From an uncultured bacterium (lineage in GTDB: Bacteria; Actinomycetota; Acidimicrobiia; Acidimicrobiales; VFJN01): a DNA stretch of 64,000 bases. Positions 2,211 through 64,000 of this stretch are shown here, piece by piece. Under the pieces are notes generated by a model, which saw only the letters and a program-made list of their open reading frames with translations, had not been told where the DNA came from and did not search any database. The stretch is from the NCBI GenBank assembly GCA_963717085.1, contig CAVQVM010000011.1:233108-297107 (forward strand), read 5' to 3'. Every line of letters begins with the position of its first letter. Position 1 is the stretch's first letter. The position numbers and the translations under genes are program-made.

Positions 2211-2552
2211 CTACATGTGTGGCGGGCGCCACCACGCCAAGACCAAAGACACGGCCAGAAGGATCGCTACGCCGAGGGCGAAGTGCGCCGCCCACGCGCC
2301 CGCCAGGGTCGGGCCGCCCCACGAGTCCCGCAAGTCGTCGGCTCCGATGAGGGGATAGAGCACGCCTCGCAACACCACGATGAGCCACAACGGTCCGGTC
2401 AAGACCAAAGAGACCATCGAGACCCCGCCCGCTCGTTTCCCTAACCGGGCGGCGAGCTCGACGCGGTTCGTCGCCGCGGCGATGCCCGTCGCGATCACCG
2501 CCGGCAGCGCGGTCGCCACGACGATCGTGTCCATGCCCAAGCCTCGTCGCAT
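2211..2552 (-). CDS. Small integral membrane protein, unknown family
   Basis: 113-aa ORF with several hydrophobic helices (TIVVATALPAVIATGIAAA, MVSLVLTGPLWLIVVL, FALGVAILLAVSLVLAWW). Confidence 0.45.
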   Translation of the reverse strand: MRRGLGMDTIVVATALPAVIATGIAAATNRVELAARLGKRAGGVSMVSLVLTGPLWLIVVLRGVLYPLIGADDLRDSWGGPTLAGAWAAHFALGVAILLAVSLVLAWWRPPHM

Positions 2553-2838
2553 TGCTTGTGGGTCCTCGCTCGTGACGACTCGCGTGCGTCTCTGACGATG
2601 CCACGGGATGGAACTCGTCGCCGTTCAGCTGACGCCGCCAACCTCGCAGGTAGGCGTCGACACCAACTGATGCCGATCGGCGTCGCTGACCGGGACATCG
2701 GTGGCGACGCTGAAGCGAAGCGTGGGCTGCCAGCTCCTTTGCCCTGGTCCCGGGTGAGCGAGCGGCGTAGCTGTTGGGGTAGCGCCGTGATGTGTCGGGC
2801 AAGGGCGTCGGCGACGAGGGCGGCCGGCTGCGGTCTTG

Positions 2839-4799: not shown

Positions 4800-5200
4800 G
4801 CTACGTCCTCCCGAGCGGCGGTCCGAAACGTGGTGATGAACAGGGCCTCGATGCTCTCGTCGTCGAGCCCGGCCCGCCGCGCCCTGTCCAGCCAGCGCCG
4901 CAAATCCTGGCGCAGCGGACCGTGCGCCGCGAGCGTGGCGTCGGCGAGCGTCCGCGTCACGAACGTCCCGATCCCCGGGCGAGCGGCCACGAGCCCGTCG
5001 TGCTCGAGCTCGCGGTAGGCCTTCAGGACGGTGTTGGGATTGATCGCCAGCCGCGCGACCACATCCTTGACCGTCGGAAGCTGATCACCCTCCCGCAACA
5101 GGCCCAGCCTGAGCGCCTGGCGCACCTGTCGCACGAGCTGCTGATACGGCGGCAGTCCGGACCCGGCGTCCAAGTGGAACTCTATCATCGGCTCAGTCAT
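4796..5200 (-). CDS. GntR-family transcriptional regulator (short YtrA-like type)
   Basis: Winged-helix segment LPTVKDVVARLAINPNTVLKAYRELEHDGLV. 134 aa, with a 4-nt overlap onto the ABC ATPase gene. An AT-richer promoter-like stretch lies just upstream (5201-5250). Confidence 0.85.
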   Translation of the reverse strand: MTEPMIEFHLDAGSGLPPYQQLVRQVRQALRLGLLREGDQLPTVKDVVARLAINPNTVLKAYRELEHDGLVAARPGIGTFVTRTLADATLAAHGPLRQDLRRWLDRARRAGLDDESIEALFITTFRTAAREDVA

Positions 5201-5822
5201 TTAGCTAGGATCATAGCACATTAGATGAATCCGGAAATAGAAACCTCCCGCTCGACCCAACCCCACCGGGCCGGACGGCCCGGCCCCGGGGGCTGACCCC
5301 TGCGCGCACCACGCAGCAAAGGCGCCGACGGTTGAACGAGTCCGCGCCGACAACCGTGCCGGTGCGACCGGCTCGTCCCCGCCGGCATCGACCGCGGGGT
5401 AGTTGCGGTCGCGGTCACCAGCGGCACGCTCGCACTTTCGCTCGAACCGGCACACGCCGACGACGGCGACGGTTCGTGCGTCTGGAGCTATGCAGACGGC
5501 AACGTCGAGTAATTGCCGGGGGTGACTCTACGATCGGCGTCTGTGGGAGGTGATCTCTCACCCAGACCTGTCCTTCGTGATACCGGATGAGGATGGCAGC
5601 CGGAGCTTCGGGCTCGCCCCCCAACCGGTTCTTCCCCACCCAGCCCAGACTCAGGTCCACCGCGCCAATATCGAACCACGGCCGCCAGCTTCTCGCCCCG
5701 GCCGACTCCTGTGGCGTGGTCAGATCGTCGAGATACATTCGTGAACGCTCGCCCAAGCGGCGGGTATCTCGCCTGCCAGGGCTCGGCGGGACGCGGCGAA
5801 CGCCCACGATTGAAGGGGTCTC

Positions 5823-6467
5823 ATGGCTGGTTACGCGGTTGCGCATGTGGACGAGATCGACGAGCTGGTCGACGGGGGTTGTGTCTTCCGGCCGGTCCGG
5901 CACCACTTCGGCATCACGTCGTTCGGTGCCACCGCGTGGACGGCCGGTGCCGCGGGCGACGTGATCGTCAATGAGCGCGACGAGGGCGATCCGACCGCAG
6001 ACGACGAGCTCTTCCTCGTGCTGCGAGGCCACGCCGTGTTCGAGCTCGAAGGTGACCGGGTGGATGCGCCGGCCGGGACGCTCGTCTTCGCTCCTCCGCG
6101 CACGACGCGAAGGGCGTTCGCCGAGGAGGCCGGGACCATGATCATGCTGATCGAAGGGACGCCGGGAAAGGCATACGAGCCTCGCGGCTGGGAGCTCTGG
6201 GCTCCGCTCGCCCCGCTCTACGAGTCGGGGGAGTACGCCGAGGTCGCCGACCGCCTACGAATTCTGGTCGAAGCCCACCCGCAGTACGGCTTGCTGTTCT
6301 ACAACCTCGCCTGCTGTGAGAGCCTCACGGGCCGAACCACCGACGCGCTTGACCACCTGCGACGAGCGATCGACATGTCCGAGGAGTTCCGCGGGCACGC
6401 GAAGCTCGATTCGGACCTGGACCTGATCCGCGACCAACCAGCGTTCAAGCAACTGATCAGCGACTAG
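5823..6467 (+). CDS. Cupin-domain protein with helical TPR-like C-terminal tail
   Basis: Cupin-like beta-barrel stretch ELFLVLRGHAVFELEGDRVDAPAGTLVF. The C-terminal helices resemble TPR (YGLLFYNLACCESLTGRTTDALDHLRRAI). Confidence 0.6.
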   Translation: MAGYAVAHVDEIDELVDGGCVFRPVRHHFGITSFGATAWTAGAAGDVIVNERDEGDPTADDELFLVLRGHAVFELEGDRVDAPAGTLVFAPPRTTRRAFAEEAGTMIMLIEGTPGKAYEPRGWELWAPLAPLYESGEYAEVADRLRILVEAHPQYGLLFYNLACCESLTGRTTDALDHLRRAIDMSEEFRGHAKLDSDLDLIRDQPAFKQLISD

Positions 6468-6831
6468 AGCTCTCGAGGGGATCCGGCGAACGGGCACTCC
6501 CGCCGCAAGCGGCCCGACGATGGCGAGGACGAGGACCGGCTTCTCGAGCTTCCCTGTCTCGGGACTGGCAAGTGCGACAACGAGGCCAAGCAAGAGGAAC
6601 GCCAGCACGACCAACAGCGCAAGAGCGAACGAGACACAACACAGGCTGACCCGTACATGGCGATCCCGACAGCGCATCTGCTGCCGGCGGATCACGACCG
6701 GGCCCGTCGGGTGGTCGACGCCGCATTCAGCGGAAGCCGGCGTGTCACGGATGTGTCACCCGCCTCGGCGAGCGTGCCGGCGCAAGGCGCTGACCTGGAC
6801 TAACAGCCCGCAGGCACAGAAAACGGTCAGT

Positions 6832-8505
6832 TCAGCTGGAACTAGCCAGCGTCTCGGACGAGCGCGAGAGCAGGAAACCTTCGTAGTCGCTCTCGACGAC
6901 CCTGGCGATCTCCTTGAAGAGCTTGGGCCGGCCCGCCGAGTTGAGCAGGTACCGGCGCGGCTTGCCCGGGATGTTGCTGCCGAAGTAGTAGCTGCTCGCC
7001 CCGAACGAGGGCGGCTTGGCCGCGTTCCGGTCGACCATGCTGGTCCACTCCTCCTCGGCCGCGGGATCCACCTCGATCGCGTCGAACCCGTGCTCACGCA
7101 CGTAGATGAGCGTGTCGGTGACGAAGTCGACCTGGTCGCCGTTGTACCGCGGGTTGTTCCCCGCCGCCGCATGCGGGCCACCCGGGAAGAAGAGGCTGGG
7201 GAAGCCGCTGGTCTGCACGCCGAGGAACGTCCTGGGACCGTCGGCCCAGTGCTGCTCCAGGGGCACGCCGTCCCGTCCGCGGATCCCCATGCGCAGGAGC
7301 GCGCCGGTGCCGAAATCGAAGCCGGTCGCCCACACGATGACGTCGAGCTCGCGCTCCCCCTCGGTCGTCTCGATCCCGTTCGGAGTCACCCGGACGATCG
7401 GCGTCTCCTTGACGTCGACGAGCGTGACGTTGGGCCGGTTGTAGGCCTCGTAGTACCCGGTCACGAACGGCGGCCGGTGCTCGCCGAAGCGGTGATCCTT
7501 CGGGATCAGCTTCCGGGCCGTTTCCGGATCGTGCACGATGCCAGTGATCTTCTCGGCGAGGAAGCCGCACCACTCGGCGTTGGCCGCGGGGTCGAGCAAC
7601 AGGTCGGTGTAGTTGCTGGTGAGCTTGGAGAAGCCGGGGCTGTTCCACATCCTCTCGAAGAAGGCCCGGCGGTCGTCCTCGGAGTCGTCGAAGGTCACCC
7701 GGTCGTGCGGCCGGTGGAGGAACCCGTGCGGTGACGTGTTCACCGTCTCGCAGATCACCTCGAACGCCGCCCGGAGCCGCGCCTGTTCGTCGGGGGTGAT
7801 CGGCCCGTTGTTCAGCGGAGTGCACCAGTTGGCGGTGCGCTGATAGACGGTGAGCGACTCGACCACCGGCGCGATGACCGGGACGATCTGCACGCCGCTC
7901 GAACCAGTGCCGACGACAGCGACGCGTTTGCCCGCGAAGTCGAGGGGACTCGCGGGCCACAGACCCGTGTGGTGCGACTCGCCGCCGAACTCCTCGCGCC
8001 CCGGTACGTCCGGGAAGTGGGGCACCGACAGCACGCCGGTCGTGGCCACGAGGTACCTCGCTCGGGTGACCGCATCGTCGCCGGTCGTGACGGTCCACGT
8101 CGCCATGGCCTCGTCGTAGGTGGCCGATGTGACCCTGGCGCCGAACCGCATGTGGCGACGGAGGTCGAACCGGTCGACGACGTGGTTGAGGTAGCGCTCG
8201 GTCTCGGGCTGCTCGGCGAAGTGCTCCTGCCACTCCCACTCGTCGAACAGCTCCTGGGAGAACAGATAGCCGTAGGTGTAGCTCTCGGAGTCGAACCGAG
8301 CTCCGGGGTAGCGGTTCCAGTACCAGGTCCCGCCCACGCCGCCGCCTGCCTCGACCAGGGCGACGGAGAAGCCGGCCTCTCGCGCGCGGTAGAGCTGGTA
8401 GATGCCCGTGATCCCGGCGCCGACGACGAGAACGTCCACATCGGGGCCATCGGGGGCGGGCGGGCCGACACGCCCGGCGCCTGCGGGTTGGGAGGATGTC
8501 GTCAT
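6832..8505 (-). CDS. Baeyer-Villiger (flavin-containing) monooxygenase
   Basis: GxGxxG (VVGAGITG), GGTWYWNRYPG, BVMO fingerprint FxGxxxHxxxWP (FGGESHHTGLWP), second dinucleotide motif VVGTGSSG. Confidence 0.9.
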   Translation of the reverse strand: MTTSSQPAGAGRVGPPAPDGPDVDVLVVGAGITGIYQLYRAREAGFSVALVEAGGGVGGTWYWNRYPGARFDSESYTYGYLFSQELFDEWEWQEHFAEQPETERYLNHVVDRFDLRRHMRFGARVTSATYDEAMATWTVTTGDDAVTRARYLVATTGVLSVPHFPDVPGREEFGGESHHTGLWPASPLDFAGKRVAVVGTGSSGVQIVPVIAPVVESLTVYQRTANWCTPLNNGPITPDEQARLRAAFEVICETVNTSPHGFLHRPHDRVTFDDSEDDRRAFFERMWNSPGFSKLTSNYTDLLLDPAANAEWCGFLAEKITGIVHDPETARKLIPKDHRFGEHRPPFVTGYYEAYNRPNVTLVDVKETPIVRVTPNGIETTEGERELDVIVWATGFDFGTGALLRMGIRGRDGVPLEQHWADGPRTFLGVQTSGFPSLFFPGGPHAAAGNNPRYNGDQVDFVTDTLIYVREHGFDAIEVDPAAEEEWTSMVDRNAAKPPSFGASSYYFGSNIPGKPRRYLLNSAGRPKLFKEIARVVESDYEGFLLSRSSETLASSS

Positions 8506-8533
8506 GCGGCCGGGGCGTGGGCGCCGGGTCTAG

Positions 8534-8564
8534 ATCGGCACGCCGACACACGGCGACGGCCGAT
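8534..8564. promoter_or_regulatory. Imperfect palindrome in the divergent BVMO/Rieske promoter region (operator candidate)
   Basis: ATCGGCACGCCG-ACACA-CGGCGACGGCCGAT. The outer arms ATCGGC/GCCGAT and inner arms CGCCG/CGGCG are reverse complements. Confidence 0.25.
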
Positions 8565-8630
8565 TCGAATCTTGTACCGACCGGTTAGCATATCGACGCC
8601 CTTGACCGGTCCTGGAGGGGAACGGGCTCC

Positions 8631-10010
8631 ATGGCGATCGTCGAACCGAAGCGCGCCGACATGACGGGTCCTGCCTTGCCGGTGCCGTACGCGATGGAGG
8701 TCCCCGACCGCGTCCGCAAGGAGCGCTACTTCGATCCGGACTTCTTCCGCATGGAAGCCGAGCTGCTGTGGCCCCGGGTGTGGCAGATGGCCTGCCGCCT
8801 GGACGAGATCCCCCGCGCCAACGACTTCGTCGAATATCAAGTCCTCGACCAGTCGGTCATCGTGGTGCGCACCGACGACCTGGGCGTGCGCGCCTTCCAG
8901 AACGCATGCCGCCACCGCGGCGCCCGCGTCGTCGAGGGGCGCGGGTCCTGCGAGAGCGGCTTCACCTGCCCGTTCCACGGGTGGTGCTACGGCCCGGACG
9001 GCAAGAACAGCTTCGTCCCGCGGGCCCGGACCTTCTCCGAGCACAACCTTCGACCGGAAGACCTCGACCTCGTGCCCGTGCGGTGCGAGATGTGGGGCGG
9101 GTGCGCGTGGATCAACCTCGACCGCGATGCGCCGCCGTTGCGGCACTGCATCGAGCCGGCCGCGAACACGCTCGACGCCTGGAAGGTCGGATCGCTGCGC
9201 GCCGAGTGGTGGCTCGCGTGCCGGCTCCCCGTGAACTGGAAGCTCGCCGTCGAAGCGTTCGTCGAGAGCTATCACGTGGTGGAGTCGCATCCGCAGCTCG
9301 TCATCCCCACGAGGTATGGAATGCGCGAGGGCGCACCGTTCGACCCGCGCAAGTTCGTCGACGCCGACATCCAGTACCTCCGGTCGATGAGCGAGGGCAT
9401 GGCCGGGATGGTCCATGCCAACGACGTGCGCATCGCCGAACGCCTCCGGGACATCGAGCTCCCCACCGACCCCGCCCTCGCGACGGCCACCTGGAACAGA
9501 ACACTCAACGACGCCGTCACGAGCTGGCACCGAGACCGGGGTGCCGACATCCCCCACCTGAACGAGCTCGCTCACCAAGGGCTCGACCAGGAGTTCTTCC
9601 ACTGCTTCCCGCACTACTTCGTGCTGCCGATGTACAGCAGCGCCTCGTCCTACCGATTTCGCCCGCTCGGGCCGGAAGAGACGCTGATGGACATCTGGTC
9701 GCTCACCCGGTACCCGGAAGGGGAGGAGCCCGAGAGCCCCGCACCTCCCGAGCCGTGGGAGTGCGACGATCCGCGCTGGCCGCCGATCCCTGCGCAGGAC
9801 TTCTCGAACCTGCCTCGGCAGCAACGAGGCCTGCACGCGAGAGGCTTCGAGTACATGCGCCTGTCCAGCGGGCTCGAGGGGCACATCTCGAACTTCGAAC
9901 GGACCATCGACGGCTTCCTCGCCGGCCTGTCCCACGAGAAGCTGTTCCAGGCTTTGCAGGCCGTCAGCGTGTATCCCTTCGACCGGCCAATCGTCGACCT
10001 CGGGTGGTAG
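8631..10010 (+). CDS. Rieske [2Fe-2S] aromatic-ring-hydroxylating oxygenase, alpha subunit
   Basis: Rieske motif CRHRGARVVEGRGSCESGFTCPFHGWCY (CxH...CxxH). Mononuclear-iron region NWKLAVEAFVESYHVVESHP. Confidence 0.9.
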   Translation: MAIVEPKRADMTGPALPVPYAMEVPDRVRKERYFDPDFFRMEAELLWPRVWQMACRLDEIPRANDFVEYQVLDQSVIVVRTDDLGVRAFQNACRHRGARVVEGRGSCESGFTCPFHGWCYGPDGKNSFVPRARTFSEHNLRPEDLDLVPVRCEMWGGCAWINLDRDAPPLRHCIEPAANTLDAWKVGSLRAEWWLACRLPVNWKLAVEAFVESYHVVESHPQLVIPTRYGMREGAPFDPRKFVDADIQYLRSMSEGMAGMVHANDVRIAERLRDIELPTDPALATATWNRTLNDAVTSWHRDRGADIPHLNELAHQGLDQEFFHCFPHYFVLPMYSSASSYRFRPLGPEETLMDIWSLTRYPEGEEPESPAPPEPWECDDPRWPPIPAQDFSNLPRQQRGLHARGFEYMRLSSGLEGHISNFERTIDGFLAGLSHEKLFQALQAVSVYPFDRPIVDLGW

Positions 10011-10019
10011 TGGGCGGTC

Positions 10020-10427
10020 GTGGGCGACGACATGACCTACGGGGAGGTCGTCGAAGGCATCCGCGCCACCCTCGCCGCCTACACGCAGGCGCTCGACGAC
10101 GGACGCACCGACGACGTCGTCGCCACCTTCTGCCCGGACGGTGTCTGTGACATCCCGGGCATGGGCACGTACGAGGGCCACGATGCGCTGCGCAGCGCGT
10201 TCGCGGGATGGAAGCCCCGCCGACCCCAGCGTCACCTAGTCCTCAACACCCTCGTCACCGACTGGAACGACCACGAAGCCCACGCGCTCAGCGACGTGCT
10301 GTTCATCCTGCTCGGCAGCTCGGGCTGGTCCATCGAGCTCGTCGGTCGGTACCACGACACCCTCCACCGCGTCGGCGGCGCGTGGCGGTTCCAGCGCCGC
10401 TTCGCCGAGTTCGTGACGCCGTCGTAG
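10020..10427 (+). CDS. SnoaL-like / NTF2-fold protein
   Basis: 135 aa with IRATLAAYTQALDDGRTDDVVATFCPDG...GRYHDTLHRVGGAWRF, a typical SnoaL_4-like pattern. The start could be the ATG at 10032. Confidence 0.7.
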   Translation: MGDDMTYGEVVEGIRATLAAYTQALDDGRTDDVVATFCPDGVCDIPGMGTYEGHDALRSAFAGWKPRRPQRHLVLNTLVTDWNDHEAHALSDVLFILLGSSGWSIELVGRYHDTLHRVGGAWRFQRRFAEFVTPS

Positions 10428-10444
10428 ACGTCACCCGCCGGCGG

Positions 10445-11284
10445 TCAGTCGACGAAGTCGGGCACGACCTCGCGTGCGAACCGCTCGACCTGGGCGGCAC
10501 CGGCACCGGGCCAGCCGCACACCAGGTAGTCGTAGCCGGCGTCGCGCCACTTGTCGGCGTGCTTGCGCGCCGTTTGGATGTCGTCTAGCGAGAGCGAGGC
10601 AGCCCGCCTGATGTCGCCGGGATCGCGGCCTGCCTCGACGGCGAGCTGGTCGATGCGCTCGTACGCCTCACGCAGCGAGTTGGGGGTCCCGTACGCGTGC
10701 CACACGTCGGCGTACCGAGCGACGAGCGGGATCGTGCGACGCGGCCCGCTGCCGCCCACCCAGATGGGCGGGCGGGGCTGCTGCACGGGCGTCGGCCGCA
10801 TCTGCGCGTCGCGCAGTGACACGACCCTGCCCTCGTACGACACGACCTCGCCGGTGAACAGGCGGGTCACGATCTCGAGGGTGTCCTCTAGCAGGTCGAA
10901 GCGCTCCCTCGTCGACGGGAAGGGGATGCCGAGCTCGTGGTGCTCCTCGTCGTGCCAGGCCGCGCCGAACGAGAGCTCGAGACGACCATGCGACGCGTGG
11001 TCGACGGTGAGCGCCTGGGCCGCGAACACCGACGGGTGCCTGTAGGTCACCCCTGTCACGAGCAGGCCGAGCCGGATGTGGTTCGTCACTCCGGTCAGGG
11101 CGGCGAGCGTCGTCATGCCCTCGAAGGTCTCCCCCGGGCCTTCGCCGTACATCGGTTGGAGGTGGTCGAAACCCCAGGCGCCGTCGAATCCCAGCTCCTC
11201 GGCGAACCGCACGCGGCGCACGATTTCGTCCCAGGGCATGCGTTGCTGCGCAACATCGAGTCCAAACCGCATGGGCCGGACCAT
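10445..11284 (-). CDS. LLM-class (luciferase-like, probably F420-dependent) oxidoreductase
   Basis: MRFGLDVAQQ...FAEELGFDGAWGFDHL...GRLELSFGAAW. Start uncertain (11308, 11284 or 11272). Confidence 0.8.
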   Translation of the reverse strand: MVRPMRFGLDVAQQRMPWDEIVRRVRFAEELGFDGAWGFDHLQPMYGEGPGETFEGMTTLAALTGVTNHIRLGLLVTGVTYRHPSVFAAQALTVDHASHGRLELSFGAAWHDEEHHELGIPFPSTRERFDLLEDTLEIVTRLFTGEVVSYEGRVVSLRDAQMRPTPVQQPRPPIWVGGSGPRRTIPLVARYADVWHAYGTPNSLREAYERIDQLAVEAGRDPGDIRRAASLSLDDIQTARKHADKWRDAGYDYLVCGWPGAGAAQVERFAREVVPDFVD

Positions 11285-11324
11285 CTCACACCCGCGCGCA
11301 GCAGGCAACGTCGTGGCGTCAGAC

Positions 11325-11738
11325 TCAGCCGCTCGCCGCGCAGACGTCGGTGTGGAGCCTCGTCAGTGTCGACGACGCGATGCGCCAGCCGTCGCCGACC
11401 TTCTCGTAGGTCTCGTGGTAGTGCCCGTAGCCGTCGAGTCGGGTGCCGTCCGGCCAGATGACGATGTCGTGGAGCGCCCAGACGCCGGTCGCCGTGGTCG
11501 ACGATGTCAGCTCGATCTCGGGCATGTGGCCGTGGTGGACGGTCACCGCGTCGGCGAGCACGTCGCGGAGGAACGCCAGGAACTCGTCGGCGCCGGTGAC
11601 CACGCTCCCGCCCGCGGCGGTGGTGTCCATCACGACGCCCTCGGTGAAGACTCCACGGAACCCTGCCCAGTCCTTGGTGTCCATGGTCCGGAAGTAGCGG
11701 GCCTTCAGCTGCTTGATCGCTTCGACGTCGTCCATCAC
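11325..11738 (-). CDS. SnoaL-like / NTF2-fold protein
   Basis: MDDVEAIKQLKARYFRTMDTKDWAGFRGVF... is a typical SnoaL_4 N-terminus. 4-nt overlap with the upstream SDR. Confidence 0.75.
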   Translation of the reverse strand: MMDDVEAIKQLKARYFRTMDTKDWAGFRGVFTEGVVMDTTAAGGSVVTGADEFLAFLRDVLADAVTVHHGHMPEIELTSSTTATGVWALHDIVIWPDGTRLDGYGHYHETYEKVGDGWRIASSTLTRLHTDVCAASG

Positions 11739-30955: not shown

Positions 30956-31290
30956 GGTGATCCTCCCTCACTCTGGATCGCATCGGGTGCTTCGGTGGTT
31001 CCGGTGGGGGGTTCAGCGTCGAGCTCGGCGAGGAGCTCGGCGCCCGACACGACGCGCTCGGCGAAGTGTCGATGCATCCACGCCAGGTGGTCGTGACGGC
31101 TGTGCATGATCCGCAACGTGTCCCAGTTGGGGAACGTCTGCTGGAGCACCCACCGCTCCATCAGGCGGGGATCGACCTCGTAGACGTGCTCGAAGCGGGT
31201 GATCGCCACGTCGCTCGCCCGCGCCGCCGGCGGCGGCGTCGTCTGCTCGGCGTGGCGGTAGCCGATCGGGCCGTTCGGGCCGGCCATCAC
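30952..31290 (-). CDS. Hypothetical His-rich small protein
   Basis: 112 aa, ATGA-coupled on both sides inside the operon. Contains MHSRHDHLAWMHRHF. No family recognised. Confidence 0.55.
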   Translation of the reverse strand: MMAGPNGPIGYRHAEQTTPPPAARASDVAITRFEHVYEVDPRLMERWVLQQTFPNWDTLRIMHSRHDHLAWMHRHFAERVVSGAELLAELDAEPPTGTTEAPDAIQSEGGSP

Positions 31291-32795
31291 CGACCACCTC
31301 CCTCATACGCCCTGTCGAGGCCGTACTTGCCGGGGTTCATGATGTTGTTCGGGTCGAGCAACCGCTTGACGTCGAGCATCACGCCGTAGCCGCGCCCGAG
31401 CTCCTCGGGCACCAGATCGACCTCGCCCTCCCGGCACGACCCGTGGCAGGCACTGATCGAGCCGCGGTAGCGCAGCGTCACCGCTGCGATGTCCCGCTTG
31501 GCCTGCACCCACAGCCGCCATGCCTCCTCACCGAGCTGCTGCTCCCAGATCCCGACGTCGATCTCGGTGAGGTAGTCGATGCCGGTCGCCCCGTTGGTGT
31601 AGGCGAACATCCCCCAGTCGTCGAAGACGTCGGTGCGCCGACGCAGCTCGGTGACAATGGCGTGCCACTCCCGCGTGACGGCGGGCAGGTTGGTGTGGCT
31701 GATCGAGGCGTCCTCGCAGTGCCAGCTCATCGGCACGACCTGACCCGAGCGGGTGCGACCGTGCAGCGGCGTCGCGTAGCGGTCGTGGCGCGCGGCCCAG
31801 TCGCCCTCGGAGATCTCGTCGCCGAGGTAGCGTCCGCCGTGCTCGCGGGCGATGCGCAGGAGGCGCTTGCCGCCGACGCGCACCTCGTCCTCCCACCCGT
31901 ACAGCGCCGTGCACACCAGCGCCTTCACGTCCGATGGCTGGGGGATGTAGGCCTCGTCATCGCGGCGCAGGTAGGCGACCTTCCACTCGTCGAACAGCAC
32001 GGCCCCGGCGAAGGTGGCGACGCCGGCCCGGGCGAGCGCGCCGACGCAGCGGTGGGCGCTGTCGTAGTCACTGAAGGCGAAGAACGGCGACAGCTCCGCC
32101 TCCGGCTTCGGGAACAGCTTGAGCGTCGCCCGGGTGGCGATCCCGAGCGTGCCCTGGTGACCCATGAACAGGTGCTTGAGCTGGTAGCCGCTCGAGCTGC
32201 GGGTGATGTTTCCGCCGATGCCGTCGCCGACGTGCATCACCTCGCCCGTCGGCAGGACGTGGTCGAAGCTGAGCACGAGGTCGCGGGTGTGCCCGTAGCG
32301 CGACCCGATCAGCGACCAGCCGCTCGTGCCGATCCGCCCCCCGACGAGGGAGCACGGGTACGACGCCGGGTTGTCCGGGTAGATCAGCCCGTGCCGGCCG
32401 AGGACCTCGTTGAGCTTGAGCATGTTGATGCCGACGCCGACGGTGCAGGTGCGGTTGTCGAGGTCGATCTCGTGGATCTGGTTCATCCGCTTGACGTCGA
32501 CGAGGATCCCGTGGCGCAGCGGCACGGCGCCGTCGGTCAGCCCCGTGCCGCCGTCGCGGGGCACGATCGGCACGGCCAGCTCGTTGGCGAGGCGGACGAC
32601 TGTGACGACGTCGTCGGTCGACTCGGGCAGCACGACGACGTCGGGGACGTGCTCGGACCACCGGTGCACCGGGAACGGGGCGGGCGTTCTCGCCCGGTTG
32701 AATCGGTCGGCCTTCGATGTCAGCACCTGGTCGGCGCGCAGGACGCCCTGCAGCCGGCTGACGAGGTGGTCGAGAGCGTCGGCGGTGAGGCTCAT
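31287..32795 (-). CDS. FAD-binding oxidoreductase (GlcD / FAD_binding_4 family)
   Basis: VVLPESTDDVVTVVRLANELAVPIVPRDGGTGLTDGAVPLRHGILVDVKRMNQI. 502 aa. Confidence 0.88.
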   Translation of the reverse strand: MSLTADALDHLVSRLQGVLRADQVLTSKADRFNRARTPAPFPVHRWSEHVPDVVVLPESTDDVVTVVRLANELAVPIVPRDGGTGLTDGAVPLRHGILVDVKRMNQIHEIDLDNRTCTVGVGINMLKLNEVLGRHGLIYPDNPASYPCSLVGGRIGTSGWSLIGSRYGHTRDLVLSFDHVLPTGEVMHVGDGIGGNITRSSSGYQLKHLFMGHQGTLGIATRATLKLFPKPEAELSPFFAFSDYDSAHRCVGALARAGVATFAGAVLFDEWKVAYLRRDDEAYIPQPSDVKALVCTALYGWEDEVRVGGKRLLRIAREHGGRYLGDEISEGDWAARHDRYATPLHGRTRSGQVVPMSWHCEDASISHTNLPAVTREWHAIVTELRRRTDVFDDWGMFAYTNGATGIDYLTEIDVGIWEQQLGEEAWRLWVQAKRDIAAVTLRYRGSISACHGSCREGEVDLVPEELGRGYGVMLDVKRLLDPNNIMNPGKYGLDRAYEGGGR

Positions 32796-32926
32796 TGCTT
32801 CCCGCTCTTGCTGCTTCGCAGCGGGCCGCTCGGGCTGTCGACGTGTTTTCTCCCGCTCCCACGGCCGCTCGGGCCGGGCTCGCTCTCACCTTGCTTCCCC
32901 GTCACCCTCGACGGACGCTCGCTCAT
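32792..32926 (-). repeat. Intercistronic dispersed repeat (copy A) containing a 44-codon mini-ORF ATGA-coupled to both neighbours
   Basis: The Fe-S gene TGA (32925-32923) overlaps ATG 32926. The mini-ORF (MSERPSRVTGKQGESEPGPSGRGSGRKHVDSPSGPLRSSKSGKQ) has a TGA (32794-32792) that overlaps the FAD-oxidase ATG 32795. Its 3' 45 nt are 43/45 identical to copy B. Confidence 0.8.
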
Positions 32927-35444: not shown

Positions 35445-36212
35445 CTACCCAGCGGGAGGGTCGTGATCGCCCGGCCGCGGCCACCAGGACACTCCCGGCA
35501 TCGCCAGCACCGACGGCGGCGATCGGTGCAACGCCGGCGTAGCGCCTGATCGAACGATGCGTGGGCGCATCGGTTCGGGTGGCGGTACCGGCTCGGGTGG
35601 CGGGACCGGCTCGGGTGGCGGGACCGGCTCGGGTGGCCACGATTCGGCCAGGGGCGACGATTCTCGTTCGGCCGGCGTGGGCAGCGTGCTTCGGTCGTTG
35701 CCTGTCGTGTGGTGCTGGCCCTCGCGAACGATTGAGAGCGCAACCCGGCCCCTTGGGGTCGGGGCGCGGCGAGGCCCGGTTCTGGTGGGCTCGCCCGACA
35801 CCGCTCTGTCCCCCAGGTAGGCGATGGCTCGCTCCAGGAGCCGAACGCCGCGGCGGGTCGTGCCGTCGTTGGACGGGTGGCGCGCTTGGGAGCGTCCGAG
35901 ACGCAAGGCGTGGGTCATGGTGTCGGGATCGTGACCCGCCGTGCGTGCGAGCGCGAGCGCCTGGTCGGGCAGGTGGAGGCGGCCGGGGCCAGCCAGCTGG
36001 AGGCTGCGCTGCCACACGCGCTGCGCGACCTCCAACCCCGCGCGGCGGGCAGAAGGCGTCGATCTCGGATCGGAACCAGCGCGGGAATGGCCGGGGACTG
36101 GCGTCGATCCGTCGGTCGTCACGACGCGCGGCCGGTCCAGCTGCGGGGGGTTACCTCGTTCGGGTCTACATCCCGACCGAACAGCGCGGCTCGACAAGGT
36201 GGGCAGACCCAC
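35445..36212 (-). CDS. Hypothetical protein with (PEPVPP)n repeat; start undefined
   Basis: Third-position GC is high in this frame from about 36060 downward. The central part looks globular (RLLERAIAYLGDRAV). The stop lies 13 nt before the downstream propeller gene. May be joined to 36119-36439 by a frameshift. Confidence 0.3.
   Translation of the reverse strand: MGLPTLSSRAVRSGCRPERGNPPQLDRPRVVTTDGSTPVPGHSRAGSDPRSTPSARRAGLEVAQRVWQRSLQLAGPGRLHLPDQALALARTAGHDPDTMTHALRLGRSQARHPSNDGTTRRGVRLLERAIAYLGDRAVSGEPTRTGPRRAPTPRGRVALSIVREGQHHTTGNDRSTLPTPAERESSPLAESWPPEPVPPPEPVPPPEPVPPPEPMRPRIVRSGATPALHRSPPSVLAMPGVSWWPRPGDHDPPAG
35571..35640. repeat. 18-bp tandem repeat, about 3.8 copies (CGGCTCGGGTGGCGGGAC)
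   Basis: Units at 35571, 35589, 35607 and 35625. Encodes PEPVPP repeats on the minus strand. Confidence 0.9.
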
Positions 36213-49856: not shown

Positions 49857-51128
49857 GTGGCCCTGGTAATACTCTGCGTGGTGATCGTCGGCGGGGGTGT
49901 CTTGGCCGTTGCGGTCGAGATGCTGGCGGCCAGTACGGACCAGCCTGCCACGGAAAGCGCCGATCTCCCCAGCGCCCGGAGGCGCTGGGGCGACACTGCG
50001 CTCGTCACCCGGCGCCGGGCCGAGACCGTCGTGCGGGCCACATGCCGAGGTGCCGTCCGGTGCACCGACCGCTCCGGGCTGGCGCTCGGCTTCGCCACGG
50101 GTGCGATGGCGCGTACTAGTGTCCGGGCGGCCCATTCCTGCCGGCACGCCGCCGCGGCGACCGGACGGGCAGCGGGTCAGGCTGGAGCTCAGACTGGGCG
50201 GACGGTCCTGAGCGTCAGCATGCGAGCCGGTCAAGCGACAGGAAGAGCGAGCATGCAGGCCGGGGAAGCGACGGGACGAGCGAGCATGCAGGCCGGTCGA
50301 GCCACCGGGCACGCCGGCACTCGCGCCGGCCGCCGGGCGGTCGCCGTCGCCCGCGGAGGCGGTGCCGCCCTGGTCGCCGCCGCCGCGACGGTCGGGGCAT
50401 CCACCGTGGCGGTGATCGGCGCCGGCAAGGCCCGGACGGCCGCGTTCGTCCGTCGGGCGGCGGCGGGCACACGCCGGACCGGAGCCCGGACCGCGGCAGG
50501 GACGGCGGAGGCCGTCCGGCGAGGCGGCGGGCGGGCGACCGTCGCCACGAGGCGGGGGACCCGACGAGCCGCGCATGCGACCAGGCGTGCCGCCACCCGC
50601 TTGGTGCCCGAGCCGGTAGCCATGCCCGACGAAGCGGACGATCGTGGCGCCCGATTCGCACGGGAGCCGGCCGCCGTCGCCGCCACTCCCGCAGCAGGGA
50701 CGGCGAAGCCGGCGGCCTTCGGGCCCGAGCCGGCGACCATCGAACCCGAACCGGTGGCCGTAGCGGCCAACCCCGCAGCCTTCGAGCCCGAGCCGGCCCC
50801 CTCCACGGCCATCCCCCCGATCTTCGAGGCCGAGCCCGCAGCCTTCGAGCCCGAGCCGGCCCCCTCCACGGCCATCCCCGCGACCACCGATGCGGTGGAC
50901 GCGGCCGCCGCTGGTCCCGTCGGCGTCGTCTCGACCGGCGACGGGCGAGGTCCGCCGCCGCAGCGTCGACTCGAGCAGGGCCAGGTGGTACCCCTGCGGC
51001 CCCGCGCGACGACCAGGCTCAGGGCGACGGGCGAGCTGCTGGTGCTGGTCGCCATTCTCGGCCTGGTGGTCTCGGGCATCATCGTTGCCTTGGCCGTGGC
51101 CGGCAACCAGGTGCTGAGCGGGCTCTGA
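49857..51128 (+). CDS. Repeat-rich Ala/Arg/Pro low-complexity protein with N- and C-terminal hydrophobic helices
   Basis: GTG 49857. This frame has consistently G/C third positions. N-terminal helix LVILCVVIVGGGVLAVAV, C-terminal helix LLVLVAILGLVVSGIIVALAVA, and internal 11-aa and 21-aa repeats. Confidence 0.45.
   Translation: MALVILCVVIVGGGVLAVAVEMLAASTDQPATESADLPSARRRWGDTALVTRRRAETVVRATCRGAVRCTDRSGLALGFATGAMARTSVRAAHSCRHAAAATGRAAGQAGAQTGRTVLSVSMRAGQATGRASMQAGEATGRASMQAGRATGHAGTRAGRRAVAVARGGGAALVAAAATVGASTVAVIGAGKARTAAFVRRAAAGTRRTGARTAAGTAEAVRRGGGRATVATRRGTRRAAHATRRAATRLVPEPVAMPDEADDRGARFAREPAAVAATPAAGTAKPAAFGPEPATIEPEPVAVAANPAAFEPEPAPSTAIPPIFEAEPAAFEPEPAPSTAIPATTDAVDAAAAGPVGVVSTGDGRGPPPQRRLEQGQVVPLRPRATTRLRATGELLVLVAILGLVVSGIIVALAVAGNQVLSGL
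50217..50315 (+). repeat. 33-bp tandem repeat x3 (encodes SMRAGQATGRA / SMQAGEATGRA / SMQAGRATGHA)
   Basis: Units start at 50217, 50250 and 50283. Confidence 0.85.
50772..50879 (+). repeat. 45-bp perfect direct repeat at 63-bp spacing (encodes PAAFEPEPAPSTAIP twice)
   Basis: CCCGCAGCCTTCGAGCCCGAGCCGGCCCCCTCCACGGCCATCCCC occurs at 50772-50816 and 50835-50879. Confidence 0.85.
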
Positions 51129-53063: not shown

Positions 53064-53262
53064 CTCAGATCACTCCTGAGGCCGAGCGCAGGCGAGGCCG
53101 GCCCGAGCGGCCGTGGGAGCGGGAGGCACACGCCGAAGCCCGAGCGGCCGTGGGAGCGGAAGGCGCATGCCGAAGCCCGAGCGGCCCGGCGCCGGAGGCG
53201 CCAAGAGCGGGAAACGCCGCGGACGCTCGACGCACCTTCTCTAGCCCTCCCACTCAGATCAC
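53063..53262 (+). repeat. Dispersed repeat copy C (inverted relative to host genes) with 37-bp sub-repeats, flanked by an 11-bp direct repeat
   Basis: The + strand carries GCCCGAGCGGCCGTGGGAGCGGGAGG..., matching the minus strand of copy A. Sub-repeats 53101-53137 and 53138-53174 are 34/37 identical. ACTCAGATCAC occurs at 53063-53073 and 53252-53262. Confidence 0.75.
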
Positions 53263-59777: not shown

Positions 59778-61301
59778 TCACCGTGCGGTCGCCTCCGGTG
59801 CCACCGTTGCCGCCATTGCGGCCATTGCGGCGCTCGCCGTCGTCGGGATCGATCGTGGTCGCGTCCACATCGGTGGCTTCGAGGTCCCTGGCGCGGTCGT
59901 AAGGAGGAGGCGGGGGCCGCGGGGCGGCGTTGGTGCGGGCGCCGAGAGTTCCGGAGGCGCGGGCGTGGCGACGTGATCGCCGGCGCCACCCTCACCCTTG
60001 CCACCGCGGCGGCGGGCCTTGACGGCCGCCCGGATGCGGCGGACCACGGGGTTCGGGCGCTGCGCGGGGAGCTGGCCCCGGCCGAGCGCCCGGAGCCCGG
60101 CAACGTAGGAGAACAGTGCGAACCCGCCGCACGCAGCCACCACCAGGAAGCCGATCTGCACGGGGATCGTCACGATCACCGGGATGAACGCCCCGACCAC
60201 CCAGGTGAGCTGGAAGCGGGTCTCGAACTTGGCGAACGACCGCCCCCGGTTGGCGTCCGGGGCGTCGCGCTGCACCACCGAGTCGAACGCCAGCTTGGCG
60301 CTGCTGGCCGAGACCCCGACGCACGCAGCCAGCGTGGTCGCCGCCGCGAGGCCGCCGGTCCACGCAGCCAGCACCGCCGCCACCGTGGTGATGCCGAGCA
60401 CGATCTGCACGATCCGCTCCTCGGGGACGCCGGCCCGCCGCATCGCCGGGGCCACCAGCGCGCCGAGCAGCGACCCCACGCCGCTGGCCGCCAGCACGAG
60501 GCCGAACTCCCAGGCCGCGGCGCCCTGGCTGCGCAGGTAGAAGGCGATCAGGAAGGTGAGGAAGCCGACGATGCCGCGCATGAGCCCCATCGCCGACGCC
60601 GCCAGCACGATCCCGCCGCCCCGCAGCTCGTTGCGTTCCGTCTGTGACGTGTCGTCTTCGGCGACCTGGGTCGGGGGGATCCGGACGCCGAGCACGGCGG
60701 CCACCGTGCAGGCGACGGCCGCAAGGATCAGCACCGCCTGGCTCCCCGCGATGGTGGCCGCGATGCCGGCCGGGACGGCCGCGGCGAAGGTCACGACACC
60801 CGACAGGAACGACAGTTTCGCGTTCGCCTCCACCAGCTCGTCGTCGGACCGCACGACCGTGGGCACGATGGCCGACTTGGCCACGTGGTAGCTCTTCGAC
60901 AGCACCAGCACGGCGAACGCCTCGGGGAACAGCAGCAGGCTGTCGATGTCGCGGATCATCAGGATGGCGAGCACCGCCCGTAGAGCGTTGGCGGCGATCA
61001 CCATCCAGCGACGCCCGCCCTTGACGCGGTCGAGCGTGGGACCGATCAGCGGCGCCACCACCGCGAAGGGCGCCATCGTCAGCGCCAGGTAGAGCGCCAC
61101 GCGGGAGCGGGCCGCGTCAGGATCGATGGATAGGAACAGCGAGTCGGCCAGGGCCAGCGTGATCAGCGTGTCGCCGGCCACCGTTGCGGCATGGGTGCGG
61201 GCCAACCGGGTGAACGGGGTGACGACGAACGCCCCTGCGCCCGTGGGCTTGGGCTGGCCCAGCGGCTGCCACCCGCCGTTGCCGGCGTTAGTCGCCATCA
61301 C
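59778..61301 (-). CDS. MFS transporter with long basic/Pro-rich C-terminal tail
   Basis: About 12 hydrophobic helices (LALADSLFLSIDPDAARSRVALYLALTMAPFAVVAPLIGPTLDR...), then a low-complexity tail. Confidence 0.8.
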   Translation of the reverse strand: MMATNAGNGGWQPLGQPKPTGAGAFVVTPFTRLARTHAATVAGDTLITLALADSLFLSIDPDAARSRVALYLALTMAPFAVVAPLIGPTLDRVKGGRRWMVIAANALRAVLAILMIRDIDSLLLFPEAFAVLVLSKSYHVAKSAIVPTVVRSDDELVEANAKLSFLSGVVTFAAAVPAGIAATIAGSQAVLILAAVACTVAAVLGVRIPPTQVAEDDTSQTERNELRGGGIVLAASAMGLMRGIVGFLTFLIAFYLRSQGAAAWEFGLVLAASGVGSLLGALVAPAMRRAGVPEERIVQIVLGITTVAAVLAAWTGGLAAATTLAACVGVSASSAKLAFDSVVQRDAPDANRGRSFAKFETRFQLTWVVGAFIPVIVTIPVQIGFLVVAACGGFALFSYVAGLRALGRGQLPAQRPNPVVRRIRAAVKARRRGGKGEGGAGDHVATPAPPELSAPAPTPPRGPRLLLTTAPGTSKPPMWTRPRSIPTTASAAMAAMAATVAPEATAR

Positions 61302-61425
61302 GAGCGAGGGTAACGGAGGGTGGAGACGACCCGAGGCAATAACGAACGCCGCCGAAGAGTCGAGGCAATGGCGAACGGTCTTCGTTCGTCATTGCCTCGC
61401 CCTCAGCCCACCGTTCGCGATTGCC

Positions 61426-62148
61426 TCATGCAGTCGCCGCCGTCTTCGGCGTGTCGTACTTGTAGCCCAGGCCGCGGATGGTGACGATGCGGGTGGGTAC
61501 CGACGGGTCCCGCTCGACCTTGGCCCGCAGCCGCTTGATGTGCACGTCGAGGGTCTTGGTGTCGCCGACGTAGTCGGTGCCCCACACCCGGTCGATGAGG
61601 GTCTCGCGGGGTAGCACCCGCCCAGCGTTCGTCAGGAGGATCTCGAGCAGCTCGAACTCCTTGAGCGGGAGGCGCACCTGCTCGCCCCGGATCTCCACCT
61701 CGTGGCGCTCGGGGTCGAGTCGGACATCGCCCACCTGGAGCACGTCGCCGGACGCGGCCCGCGTCCCCGCCTCCGGGGGCCGCCGACGGAGCACCGCCCG
61801 CATGCGCGCCACCAGCTCGCGCAGGCGATAGGGCTTGGTGACGTAGTCGTCGGCACCGACCTCCAGGCCGACCACCGTGTCGATCTCCGACCCCTTGGCG
61901 GTGACCATGATGATGGGCACCGCCGAGCGCCGCCGCAGCTCGCGGCACACGTCCACCCCCGAGACCTTGGGGAGCATCACGTCGAGCAGCACCAGGTCGG
62001 GCTTCACGACGTCGAACAGGTCGAGTGCCTCCGCGCCGTCGTGCGCCACCTGCACACGGAAGCCCTCGCGCTTGAGGCCCACGGTGAGCGCCTCGACGAA
62101 GCTGTCCTCGTCCTCGACGAGGAACACGGTGGCCTCGGGAGTACTCAT
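61426..62148 (-). CDS. regX3: OmpR-family response regulator, RegX3 orthologue
   Basis: ATG 62148 (MSTPEATVFLVEDED...). LLDVMLP, IIMVTAKGSEIDTVVGLEVGADDYVTKPY, LIDRVWGTDYVGDTKTLDVHIKRLRAKVE. Closely parallels the mycobacterial RegX3 sequence as I recall it. Confidence 0.9.
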   Translation of the reverse strand: MSTPEATVFLVEDEDSFVEALTVGLKREGFRVQVAHDGAEALDLFDVVKPDLVLLDVMLPKVSGVDVCRELRRRSAVPIIMVTAKGSEIDTVVGLEVGADDYVTKPYRLRELVARMRAVLRRRPPEAGTRAASGDVLQVGDVRLDPERHEVEIRGEQVRLPLKEFELLEILLTNAGRVLPRETLIDRVWGTDYVGDTKTLDVHIKRLRAKVERDPSVPTRIVTIRGLGYKYDTPKTAATA

Positions 62149-62287
62149 TGCTCCCCGCTCATGCTGCTTCGCAGCGGGCCGCTCGGGCTCCGGCGTGTGA
62201 TCTTCCGCTCTTGCGTGTCGCACGTCACCCTGACGCGGCGGGCCGCTCGGGCCCAAGACTCACTCTCTCGCCCTTCGGGACGCTCGT

Positions 62288-62291
<4 letters not shown>
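62145..62291 (-). repeat. Intercistronic dispersed repeat (copy B) in the senX3-regX3 spacer, with a 48-codon ATGA-coupled mini-ORF
   Basis: The kinase TGA (62290-62288) overlaps ATG 62291. The mini-ORF (MNERPEGRESESWARAARRVRVTCDTQERKITRRSPSGPLRSSMSGEQ) has a TGA (62147-62145) that overlaps regX3 ATG 62148. Confidence 0.8.
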
Positions 62292-63540
<1,249 letters not shown>

Positions 63541-63544
<4 letters not shown>

Positions 63545-63826
63545 GAGCGGAGCTCCTGACCGGTCGACCGTGTGACCGCCAGGGAGCCGGGCGACGATGG
63601 GGTCCGGGGGCGCAGCCCCCGCGGGAGCACGGTCATGAGCGGAGCTCCTGACCGGTCGACCGTGTGACCGCCAGGGAGCCGGGCGACGATGGGGTCCGGG
63701 GGCGCAGCCCCCGCGGGAGCACGGTCATGAGCGGAGCTCCTGACCGGTCGACCGTGCGACCGCCAGGGAGCCGGGCGACGATGGGGTCCGGGGGCGCAGC
63801 CCCCGCGGGAGCACGGTCATGAGCGG
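63541..63826 (-). repeat. 92-bp tandem repeat, 3 full copies plus a 10-bp partial fourth, including the senX3 RBS and start codon
   Basis: Copies at 63541-63632, 63633-63724 (identical to the first) and 63725-63816 (one substitution). TCATGAGCGG recurs at 63817. Confidence 0.95.
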
Positions 63827-63851
63827 GACCCGGGCCCCCCTCGTGGTGCCA

Positions 63852-64000
63852 TCACGCGGTTCTCCTGTCCTCCGTGGGCACGACGTCGAGGACGCCGGCC
63901 ACGTCGACGCGCTCGTCGATGCCGATGCCGCTGAGGGCGGTCACCGACACGAAACCCTGAGCGACGATGGCGGTGTCCGAGTCCGGCGGCAGGTCCGTGT
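63852..64000 (-). CDS. 3' end of a gene, SurE (5'/3'-nucleotidase)-like C-terminus; 5' part outside window
   Basis: The minus frame reads ...TDLPPDSDTAIVAQGFVSVTALSGIGIDERVDVAGVLDVVPTEDRRTA-stop. SDTAIVAQGFVSVTAL resembles the SurE TDxxAVxxGYVSITPL motif. Confidence 0.4.
   Translation of the reverse strand, partial: TDLPPDSDTAIVAQGFVSVTALSGIGIDERVDVAGVLDVVPTEDRRTA

Follow-up and report, generated by a model that had tools for sequence, protein, structure and literature searches.

The stretch of DNA analysed here comprises 64,000 nucleotides of contig CAVQVM010000011.1 (assembly GCA_963717085.1) from an uncultured member of the Acidimicrobiales and is referred to below as the window. On its minus strand, a tandem array of 92-bp units fills the junction between a surE-like gene and the gene of a SenX3-like histidine kinase, and the open reading frames (ORFs) of the units link the two genes in a chain of overlapping stop and start codons. 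An earlier note on the window had viewed this array as a possible device for tuning or insulating the expression of the kinase. Comparison with related genomes and soil metagenomes places the same unit before many unrelated genes, and the unit belongs to a family of interspersed elements that probably insert at start codons.

Array of coupled mini-ORFs at the surE-senX3 junction

The genes of the locus lie on one strand in the order pstS-pstC-pstA-pstB-phoU-surE-array-senX3-second repeat-regX3-MFS, with an MreB gene nearby. The upstream gene was identified as SurE by domain PF01975, and the two genes downstream of the array encode HisKA/HATPase_c and Response_reg/Trans_reg_C domains. Tandem Repeats Finder (TRF) reports 63537-63826 as a tandem repeat of period 92 with 3.2 copies, 99% matches, and a score of 573. 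The two units closest to senX3 are identical, the third differs from both by a single T>C at unit position 33, and a 10-nt partial fourth copy (63817-63826) follows it. Three 92-nt copies at 99 to 100% identity cannot arise by chance.

Each unit contains a 31-codon minus-strand ORF, referred to here as the mini-ORF, which encodes the peptide MTVLPRGLRPRTPSSPGSLAV(T/A)RSTGQELRS and whose stop codon lies inside TCATGA and overlaps the next ATG. The last ATG of the chain (63544-63542) is the start codon of senX3. At the other end, the stop codon of surE (TGA, 63854-63852) shares one base with an ATG at 63852-63850 (TGATG), and this ATG opens an 11-codon leader ORF. The earlier note had described this anatomy, including the overlap at the surE stop, one GC-only hairpin per unit, and a kinase Shine-Dalgarno (SD) sequence and first 8 coding nucleotides that belong to the repeat, and all of these points hold. 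Each unit does contain AGGAG 8 nt upstream of an ATG, as the note states, with the one correction that this is the ATG that follows; the ATGs at 63728, 63636, and 63544 are served in this way, and the ATG of the first unit (63820) has no AGGAG before it. The features are listed in Table 1.

Table 1. Features of the surE-senX3 junction, from surE towards senX3; positions are those of the window.
Feature	Position	Strand	Remark
SurE-like gene, 3' end	63852..64000	-	Continues past the window edge; counterpart in independent assembly L001 has 318 aa with PF01975
11-codon leader ORF, MAPRGGPGSRS	63817..63852	-	ATG in TGATG; stop in the first TCATGA
Unit 3, closest to surE	63725..63816	-	C at unit position 33; mini-ORF 63725..63820
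Unit 2	63633..63724	-	Mini-ORF 63633..63728
Unit 1, closest to senX3	63541..63632	-	Mini-ORF 63541..63636; stop overlaps the senX3 ATG
GC hairpin, helix 1 (CGGGGGC-UGC-GCCCCCG)	63606-63620, 63698-63712, 63790-63804	-	One per unit
AGGAG in units 2 and 3	63645-63649, 63737-63741	-	Each serves the ATG of the next unit
AGGAG Shine-Dalgarno, unit 1	63553..63557	-	8 nt before the senX3 ATG
3' hairpin, helix 3 (GGUCA-G-GAGC-UCC-GCUC-AUGACC)	63537..63562	-	Single-sequence fold; pairs the SD and most of the start codon region of senX3
senX3-like histidine kinase gene, 418 aa	62288..63544	-	First 8 nt, ATGACCGT (63544-63537), within the repeat periodicity

An independent assembly of the locus (L001) is 99.5% identical to the window over 11.7 kb (46 mismatches, 7 gap openings), and it also has three units, in a differing variant pattern. 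A sequence scan of 62000-64000 found no sigma-70 promoter-like or intrinsic terminator-like site, and no Rfam 15 covariance model matched 61000-64000 at E <= 1. Because TCATGA is palindromic, the plus strand of unit 3 is open as well, from ATGAGC to the next TCATGA (63725-63822) and inside a plus-strand ORF at 63664..63822; units 1 and 2 carry TGA where unit 3 is open, and the T>C substitution toggles this antisense stop.

A dispersed family of 92-bp units

A search of relatives for the unit, which the earlier note had proposed, uncovered an interspersed family. A 20-nt probe from the 3' part of the unit found nine genuine loci in four metagenome-assembled genomes (MAGs), while two more matches (L009 and L013) were due to chance. 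Four separate loci lie in MFD09267.bin.2.210 (one triplet, two pairs at exact 92-nt spacing, and one single unit) and three in HAY_GB_MAG_00018, and two further MAGs were also matched. An independent probe for the 5' core (the hairpin plus CCCCATCGTCG) matched at least 120 metagenome contigs. A profile hidden Markov model of 65 units recovered 167 copies in 0.9 Mb of collected DNA, the window holding just the three described above. These searches indicate that the 92-bp unit is a member of a large, dispersed, and apparently undescribed family of elements in soil Actinomycetota. Since the same unit stands before many unrelated genes, it was not built for senX3, and the idea of a device specific to this kinase does not survive.

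The named SenX3 homologues come from Acidimicrobiales MAGs, and SenX3 homologues are plentiful in metagenomes. The closest named homologues and the unit-bearing MAGs are labelled Acidimicrobiales or Actinomycetota; the host is thus not Mycobacterium.

Among 81 unique full units, the length is 92 nt in 72, 95 nt in 3, 152 nt in 3, 91 nt in 3, and 89 nt in 1. Short forms at other loci, which arise by deletion between two GCTGCGC direct repeats, are again 3n+2 nucleotides long. Other subfamilies have ATTCG, ACGAG, or ATGAG in place of AGGAG, and the SD sequence is therefore a trait of the window's subfamily that the family as a whole does not share. The TCATGA junction is palindromic, and an inverted subfamily has an 89-nt unit with a GAGGAG SD sequence and an ATGA or GTGA junction before long ORFs on the opposite strand. 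Members of the inverted subfamily (in L020, L023, L089, L091, L096, L111, L116, L133, and others) are flanked by GCT|CATGCC and read on the opposite strand as ATGAGCGAAGCGAG...GGCGACGATGGGG..hairpin..GAGGAGT.GC|ATGAGC, with a different mini-ORF, an SD of its own, and ATGA coupling into the long ORFs. In L014 and L134, the unit ends in 18 nt (CAGGTCAGGAGCTGCGCT/CC) that are tandemly repeated two to three times before the start of a gene encoding MTVLAAVD..., a micro-array of SD-bearing tails inside the larger repeat.

Position at start codons and maintenance of the reading frame

All arrays end on the (A/G)TGACC start of the downstream gene. In 62 of the 70 complete forward arrays, the ATG or GTG that ends the last unit opens an ORF of 60 codons or more. 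Where enough upstream sequence was available, 53 of 61 arrays are preceded by an ORF of at least 150 codons on the same strand that ends within 120 nt; among those 53, the junction is an exact 4-nt NTGA overlap in 26 and a 1-nt TGATG overlap in 6 (32 exact overlaps).

The mini-ORF is intact and coupled in 78 of the 81 unique full units, and compensating +1 and -1 indels occur in L005, L060, and L119. Relative to the window unit, the two indels in L005 are 8 nt apart and the frame is restored. The peptide is far less conserved than the nucleotide core, with residues 3 to 5 and the tail highly variable between loci, and a search with it returned 13 weak hits among 1.84 billion representatives, mostly short ORFs of 30 to 47 aa and none belonging to a known family. 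Such a pattern suggests that it is the open frame that is kept and not the sequence of the peptide, and that the ATGA-coupled mini-ORF chain is a designed or selected property maintained across the whole family.

Conserved stems

The earlier note had also proposed folding the units. Thermodynamic folding was not distinctive against shuffled sequences (z = -0.78 for the whole array and -1.84 for a single unit), while an alignment of 79 distinct units revealed three stems that are conserved with covariation; the covariation analysis, and not the folding energy, is the informative test of structure. Helix 1, the GC hairpin (columns 17-33), is paired in 98.7% of cells, with compensatory variants in L006 and L049, and lies within the 5' bait that fetched most copies. 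Helix 2 (columns 43-78) is paired in 96.7% of cells, and four of its pairs change on both sides (e.g., pair 50-71 is GC 58 times, CG 18 times, and UA once, and pair 55-65 is GC 46 times, CG 26 times, and AU twice). Helix 3 (columns 79-89 with 93-103; 89.6% paired, five covarying pairs) joins the CGGTCA and GAGC of the unit to the GCUC and UGACCG of the next start. The SD sequence then pairs or falls within the loop, with the start codon half buried, and the outermost pair covaries with the seventh nucleotide of the gene.

Across the three stems, 94.6 to 96.7% of cells are paired, compared with 27 to 46% when the partners are slid. The covariation score is 0.106 to 0.108, compared with 0.026 to 0.029 in shuffles, none of 500 of which reached the observed score, although the covariation counts overstate the number of independent events because many changes are inherited within subfamilies. 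The stems could work at the RNA level, for coupling, stability, or processing, or at the DNA level, for mobilisation.

The same junction in relatives

The surE-senX3 junction carries the leader and three units in the window and in L001 (100% SenX3 identity). It carries the leader and one unit in L005 (96%), L006 (94%), and L011, the gap in L005 and L006 being 123 nt (31 + 92), and a 31-nt linker alone, encoding MARGRGQELGA, in L002-L004 (96%). This linker was considered as an empty site and rejected, its 11-codon ORF ending in ..CAGGAGCTCGGCGCATGA, the unit's own 3' tail. Because it ends in that tail (CAGGAGCTC.GC.CATGA), the linker is an internally deleted unit. The leaders of L002-L006 that are homologous to MAPRGGPGSRS likewise end in ..GQELGA/..CAGGAGCTC.GC.CATGA, and we read the leader of the window as a short-form unit that appears to have suffered an internal deletion and lost its AGGAG.

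Sites free of the element came from more distant relatives. In L147 (84% SenX3 identity), the surE stop overlaps the native senX3 start as GTATGACCGTCGCG, a native ATGA overlap that already contains ATGACCGT. L138 and L143 (86%) also lack the element and have a 7-nt gap and a ATGGTGATC start, and L144 (77%) lacks it and has a 19-nt gap. The P0031 locus (81%) has a 7-nt gap as judged from gene coordinates, and L146 (89%) has an 85-nt spacer that is unrelated to the unit by profile.

The earlier note had found the array to look like a variable number tandem repeat (VNTR). The junction holds a remnant, one unit, or three units among relatives with 94 to 100% SenX3 identity, although the one-copy short-read assemblies may be collapsed arrays; within the species of the window, both assemblies have three units. 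Orthologues at other loci also differ between one and three units, subject to the same possible collapse in short-read assemblies.

Terminal repeats and local amplification

At seven of seven loci where the gene starts with TGACCA (as ATGACCA, or GTGACCA in L066), the 5' end of the unit is also TGACCA, and the identical runs reach 9 to 13 nt. The two ends of the unit carry a direct repeat of 7 to 13 nt that is locus specific beyond the conserved TGACC. A target-site duplication at a start codon would leave this pattern. A longer target duplication (~24 nt), prompted by the resemblance of the unit's 5' end to the N terminus of senX3, was rejected, the similarity at other loci extending over 7 to 13 nt only. 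The inverted repeat at the unit ends is limited to 6 nt (TGACCG...CGGTCA, which corresponds to helix 3), and there are no long terminal inverted repeats (TIRs).

Copies within an array are 99 to 100% identical, whereas family members of different loci have a mean column identity of 85%, a contrast that suggests local amplification once a unit had inserted. A nested palindromic insert of ~60 nt occurs at one fixed unit position (after ..GGCTC.CTGGC) at several unrelated loci, giving a composite unit of 152 nt (149 nt in one case) in which the mini-ORF stays open. Since this composite recurs at unrelated loci, the units were copied as units. The nested mini-element itself (in L008, L030, L045, L087, L117, L128, and L136) reads TTGTCGACCCAACTACCCGCC...GGCGAGCGGGCTCCAGTTGGGTCGAT, with TIRs of ~12 nt.

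Comparison with known repeat systems

Mycobacterial interspersed repetitive units (MIRUs) have been the workhorse of tuberculosis strain typing since the 1990s and have, to our knowledge, been treated so far as a mycobacterial peculiarity. They are 40- to 100-bp units found at 41 loci of Mycobacterium tuberculosis H37Rv, 12 of them polymorphic (PMC2734929), they insert at start codons (PMC12548453), and their first description came from the senX3-regX3 operon (Supply et al. 1997 and 2000, summarised in PMC12548453 and PMC2734929). The M. tuberculosis senX3-regX3 locus examined here (L145) has 3.1 copies of a 77-bp unit that begins with ATGACC and has TGATG overlaps, and regX3 also starts with ATGACC.

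The 92-bp family shares this architecture, which the earlier note did not recognise. Its units lie head to tail in the same size range (92 bp, 3.2 copies, 99% matches in the window), are dispersed over the genome, and stand at start codons between co-directional genes and in their orientation. Each has a small ORF that overlaps the flanking stop at one end and the flanking start at the other, a period of 3n+2, a copy number that seems to vary (here among relatives), and deleted shorter forms. The senX3-regX3 operon is host to an array in both cases, and the M. tuberculosis 77-bp unit likewise has a small GC hairpin. The two differ in that the array lies upstream of senX3 here and between senX3 and regX3 in M. 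tuberculosis, with a 4-nt ATGA junction in the former and a 1-nt TGATG junction in the latter. The 92-bp family further departs from MIRUs in the canonical AGGAG carried by each unit of the window subfamily, in its covariation-supported secondary structure and inverted-orientation subfamily, and in its Acidimicrobiales-like host.

No homology to MIRUs was detected. The 65-unit nhmmer profile reached no better than E = 6.4 on the M. tuberculosis senX3-regX3 locus, and this at the ATGACC junction only, and local alignment of the unit with the M. tuberculosis MIRU gave z values of -0.6 to 1.7 against shuffles. True MIRU homology had been suspected from a GGCGACGATG motif and was unsupported against the actual M. 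tuberculosis sequence. As no homology was found and the host differs, the 92-bp family is not a MIRU in the strict sense; the comparison indicates an independent family of the MIRU kind in another class of Actinomycetota. A limited search of the searchable literature, which is no proof of absence, found no description of MIRU-like elements outside mycobacteria.

Repetitive extragenic palindromic (REP) sequences and bacterial interspersed mosaic elements (BIMEs) are extragenic imperfect palindromes of 20 to 40 nt, usually 3' of genes and untranslated, with RAYT transposases. They resemble the 92-bp unit in being short, GC rich, hairpin forming, and highly repeated, and REPs are transcribed with neighbouring genes and often clustered. 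The 92-nt unit, in contrast, stands 5' of genes and directly against the start codon and contains a through-reading ORF, whereas REPs have neither start-codon placement nor a length of 3n+2. Miniature inverted-repeat transposable elements (MITEs; e.g., Correia/NEMIS, RUP, ERIC) are non-autonomous and dispersed like the 92-bp family and have a short flanking duplication, which the direct repeat at the ends of the 92-bp unit resembles; the 92-bp unit has a 6-nt inverted repeat, and some units carry the separate, TIR-bearing mini-element of ~60 nt within them. The 92-bp family differs from MITEs in its lack of long TIRs, its tandem arrays, its strict targeting of start codons, and its through-reading ORF. 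Translationally coupled upstream short ORFs (ribosome delivery by a uORF, bicistronic design) also end in a -4 overlap with the main start, and in both systems an upstream ribosome could open a hairpin over the SD and start; here the short ORF is borne by a repeated, apparently mobile sequence that can be stacked in tandem.

Origin of the array and alternative explanations

We consider it probable that the array consists of three copies of a mobile, tandemly expanding, coupling-preserving interspersed element of Acidimicrobiales-like Actinomycetota. The observations behind this reading are the anatomy of the array, the dispersal of its unit, the junction statistics, the maintenance of the frame, terminal repeats specific to each locus, conservation of the stems, and differing occupancy of the junction. 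Such an element would insert at the start codon of a gene, with (A/G)TGACC as its preferred target and often at the ATGA stop/start overlap of co-directional genes, and insertion would duplicate ~7 to 9 nt of the start region. It would be tolerated as translationally transparent: its own ATG would replace the start of the gene at the upstream junction, and a 31-codon open frame spans the unit and ends in a stop that overlaps the re-created start (ATGA). The period is 3n+2 because the mini-ORF stop overlaps this re-created start. In the window subfamily, every unit also brings an AGGAG 8 nt before the next ATG. Local expansion and contraction by slippage or unequal recombination would then yield near-identical copies in VNTR-like number. 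Ribosomes arriving from surE, or loaded at the AGGAG sequences of the units, would pass the 11-codon and the three 31-codon ORFs and reinitiate on senX3, and the effect on senX3 expression would be near neutral or merely modulatory.

Several observations weigh against this account. A single 92-bp-unit locus lies within the 64-kb window of the source genome, and no transposase or other mobility mechanism was identified for the 92-bp element; we infer mobility only from dispersal, from the terminal repeats, and from a single element-free junction, that of a relative with 84% SenX3 identity. The absence of copy number variation between the two assemblies of the window's species, and single-copy arrays in short-read assemblies that could be collapsed arrays, reduce the case for expansion and contraction. 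That so many mini-ORFs are intact could in part be due to the copies being young and not to selection. Length variants proved less decisive as a test of selection on the frame once they were counted as independent events, since frame-keeping changes (89, 95, and 152 nt) are then about as frequent as frame-breaking ones (three separate 91-nt units). L001 (9818-9915) and L012 (7695-7792), which supply two of the three 91-nt units, are assemblies whose contigs are named in long-read style. Codon-position entropy, tried as a test of selection on the peptide, was weakly skewed (0.63, 0.51, and 0.83 at positions 1, 2, and 3) and not decisive. Finally, the strong conservation of the stems suggests a function beyond passive tolerance. 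The 1-nt deletions of the 91-nt units in L001 and L012 would break the mini-ORF chain and are perhaps consensus errors instead of real alleles.

A bolder form of the mobile-element account, which we regard as doubtful, is an active start-codon-targeting element whose 3' hairpin buries the SD and AUG, so that the downstream gene would be translated only by way of the mini-ORF ribosome, and whose array length would be a heritable rheostat driven by slippage, here acting on the phosphate-sensing SenX3. If this were true, each insertion would make a gene a strictly coupled cistron, and the family would be a convergent, independently evolved counterpart of MIRUs. The forward and inverted subfamilies, the short forms, and the nested composite would then make the mobility mechanism of this class tractable.

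The main rival, which we hold to be rather unlikely, sees the unit as a structured element, of RNA or of single-stranded DNA, that has a function at the level of the host, with the mini-ORF as secondary. The unit could then be an mRNA stabiliser or processing site, an attenuator that depends on translation, a terminator without a U-tract that insulates senX3 from surE, or a site for protein binding. The compensatory changes in all three stems, including the four pairs of helix 2 changed on both sides, the pairing of the SD/start region with CGGTCA in helix 3 and its covariation with the seventh nucleotide of the gene, and a nucleotide core far better conserved than the peptide all fit such a function. 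Yet the array and unit fold little better than shuffles, there is neither an Rfam match nor a terminator-like site in the regions scanned, and a part in mobilisation would explain the stems equally well. Given that the genes behind the element are unrelated, its role would have to be generic, and a stabiliser or binding site would not need strict start-codon placement or a length of 3n+2.

The view that the array is a VNTR particular to this locus, evolved for tuning or insulating the expression of senX3, with repeats bracketing the two-component operon, is improbable. The differing occupancy of the junction among relatives (none, remnant, one, or three units), the repeat-borne SD and start of senX3, and a second, unrelated, coupling-preserving repeat between senX3 and regX3 (inserts of 0, 77, 131, or 143 nt) are in line with this proposal. 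Against it, several genomes have the 92-bp unit before many unrelated genes, the scan of 62000-64000 gave no sign of a promoter or terminator, and two families in one operon are expected if both target ATGA junctions. Tuning or insulation of kinase expression is neither supported nor excluded by the sequence.

We think it very improbable that the 31-codon ORFs are true small-protein genes that encode a functional peptide and were tandemly amplified. In favour of such genes, 78 of 81 units keep the frame open, every ATG but the first has an AGGAG before it in the window subfamily, and gene callers elsewhere have predicted such ORFs of 30 to 47 aa. The peptide, however, is of low complexity (rich in P, R, G, and S) and varies between loci in residues 3 to 5 and the tail, other subfamilies lack the SD, the peptide of the inverted subfamily is a different one, encoded on the other strand, a nested insert of 60 nt is tolerated in frame, and the few weak database hits include no known family. 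A spurious triplication of one 92-bp segment during assembly, a concern raised by the near identity of the copies and by tandem repeats being a known source of assembly error, is scarcely credible, since L001 independently has three units with a different variant pattern and arrays of two to three units at exact 92-nt spacing occur at other loci and in other MAGs.

The mobile, coupling-preserving element favoured here has MIRU architecture without related sequence and is abundant in uncultured soil Actinomycetota, which suggests that start-codon insertion with a coupled mini-ORF evolved more than once, or is much older and more widespread than has been assumed. With diverse copies in the hundreds, sites that are filled, empty, or hold a remnant, terminal duplications specific to the locus, covarying stems, and two orientations, the family provides comparative handles that could be used to seek the mobilising enzyme and to test modulation of translation. 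For annotation, a downstream gene receives its start codon, its second codon, and in many cases its SD from the element, and the elements create strings of ~30-aa ORFs that are picked up by gene callers. Gene-start calls will be affected by the 92-bp family as they are by the MIRUs at M. tuberculosis RegX3, of which the public entries P0121-P0124 have 245 to 277 aa instead of 227 aa, some calls starting upstream, inside the MIRU array.

Second repeat family and other features of the window

The senX3-regX3 junction (62145-62291, minus strand) holds a second, unrelated repeat family in the form of a 48-codon ORF with ATGA overlaps at both ends. The insert at this junction is absent (0 nt) in L005, L138, and L147 and measures 77 nt in L003, L004, and L006, 131 nt in L002, and 143 nt in the window and L001; all inserts are 3n+2 nucleotides long. 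The second repeat occupies the exact position of the M. tuberculosis MIRUs and is not similar to them in sequence by alignment. The earlier note had judged the 92-bp unit unrelated to this repeat, and we agree: the profile of the unit finds three copies only in the window, and the pairwise score of the two repeats is no better than that of shuffles. As stated above, two families in one operon would be no surprise if both target ATGA junctions. Further copies of the second family lie at 32791-32858 and 53117-53211. The former adjoins the ATG of a 502-codon ORF (31287..32795, minus strand), and the copy near 53101-53186 is a 37-bp tandem array.

Other tandem repeats reported by TRF in the window are at 50707-50883 (period 21/63, ~175 nt), 50217-50302 (33 bp, 2.6 copies), and 35571-35637 (18 bp, 3.7 copies). 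In L001, which extends the locus upstream of the window, the phosphate cluster, surE, and senX3-regX3 are co-directional over positions 1-11400, and in this lineage the genes of the Pst transporter, PhoU, and SenX3/RegX3 may therefore be transcribed as one unit. In M. tuberculosis (L145), a gene of the phosphoglycerate mutase family (His_Phos_1) precedes senX3.

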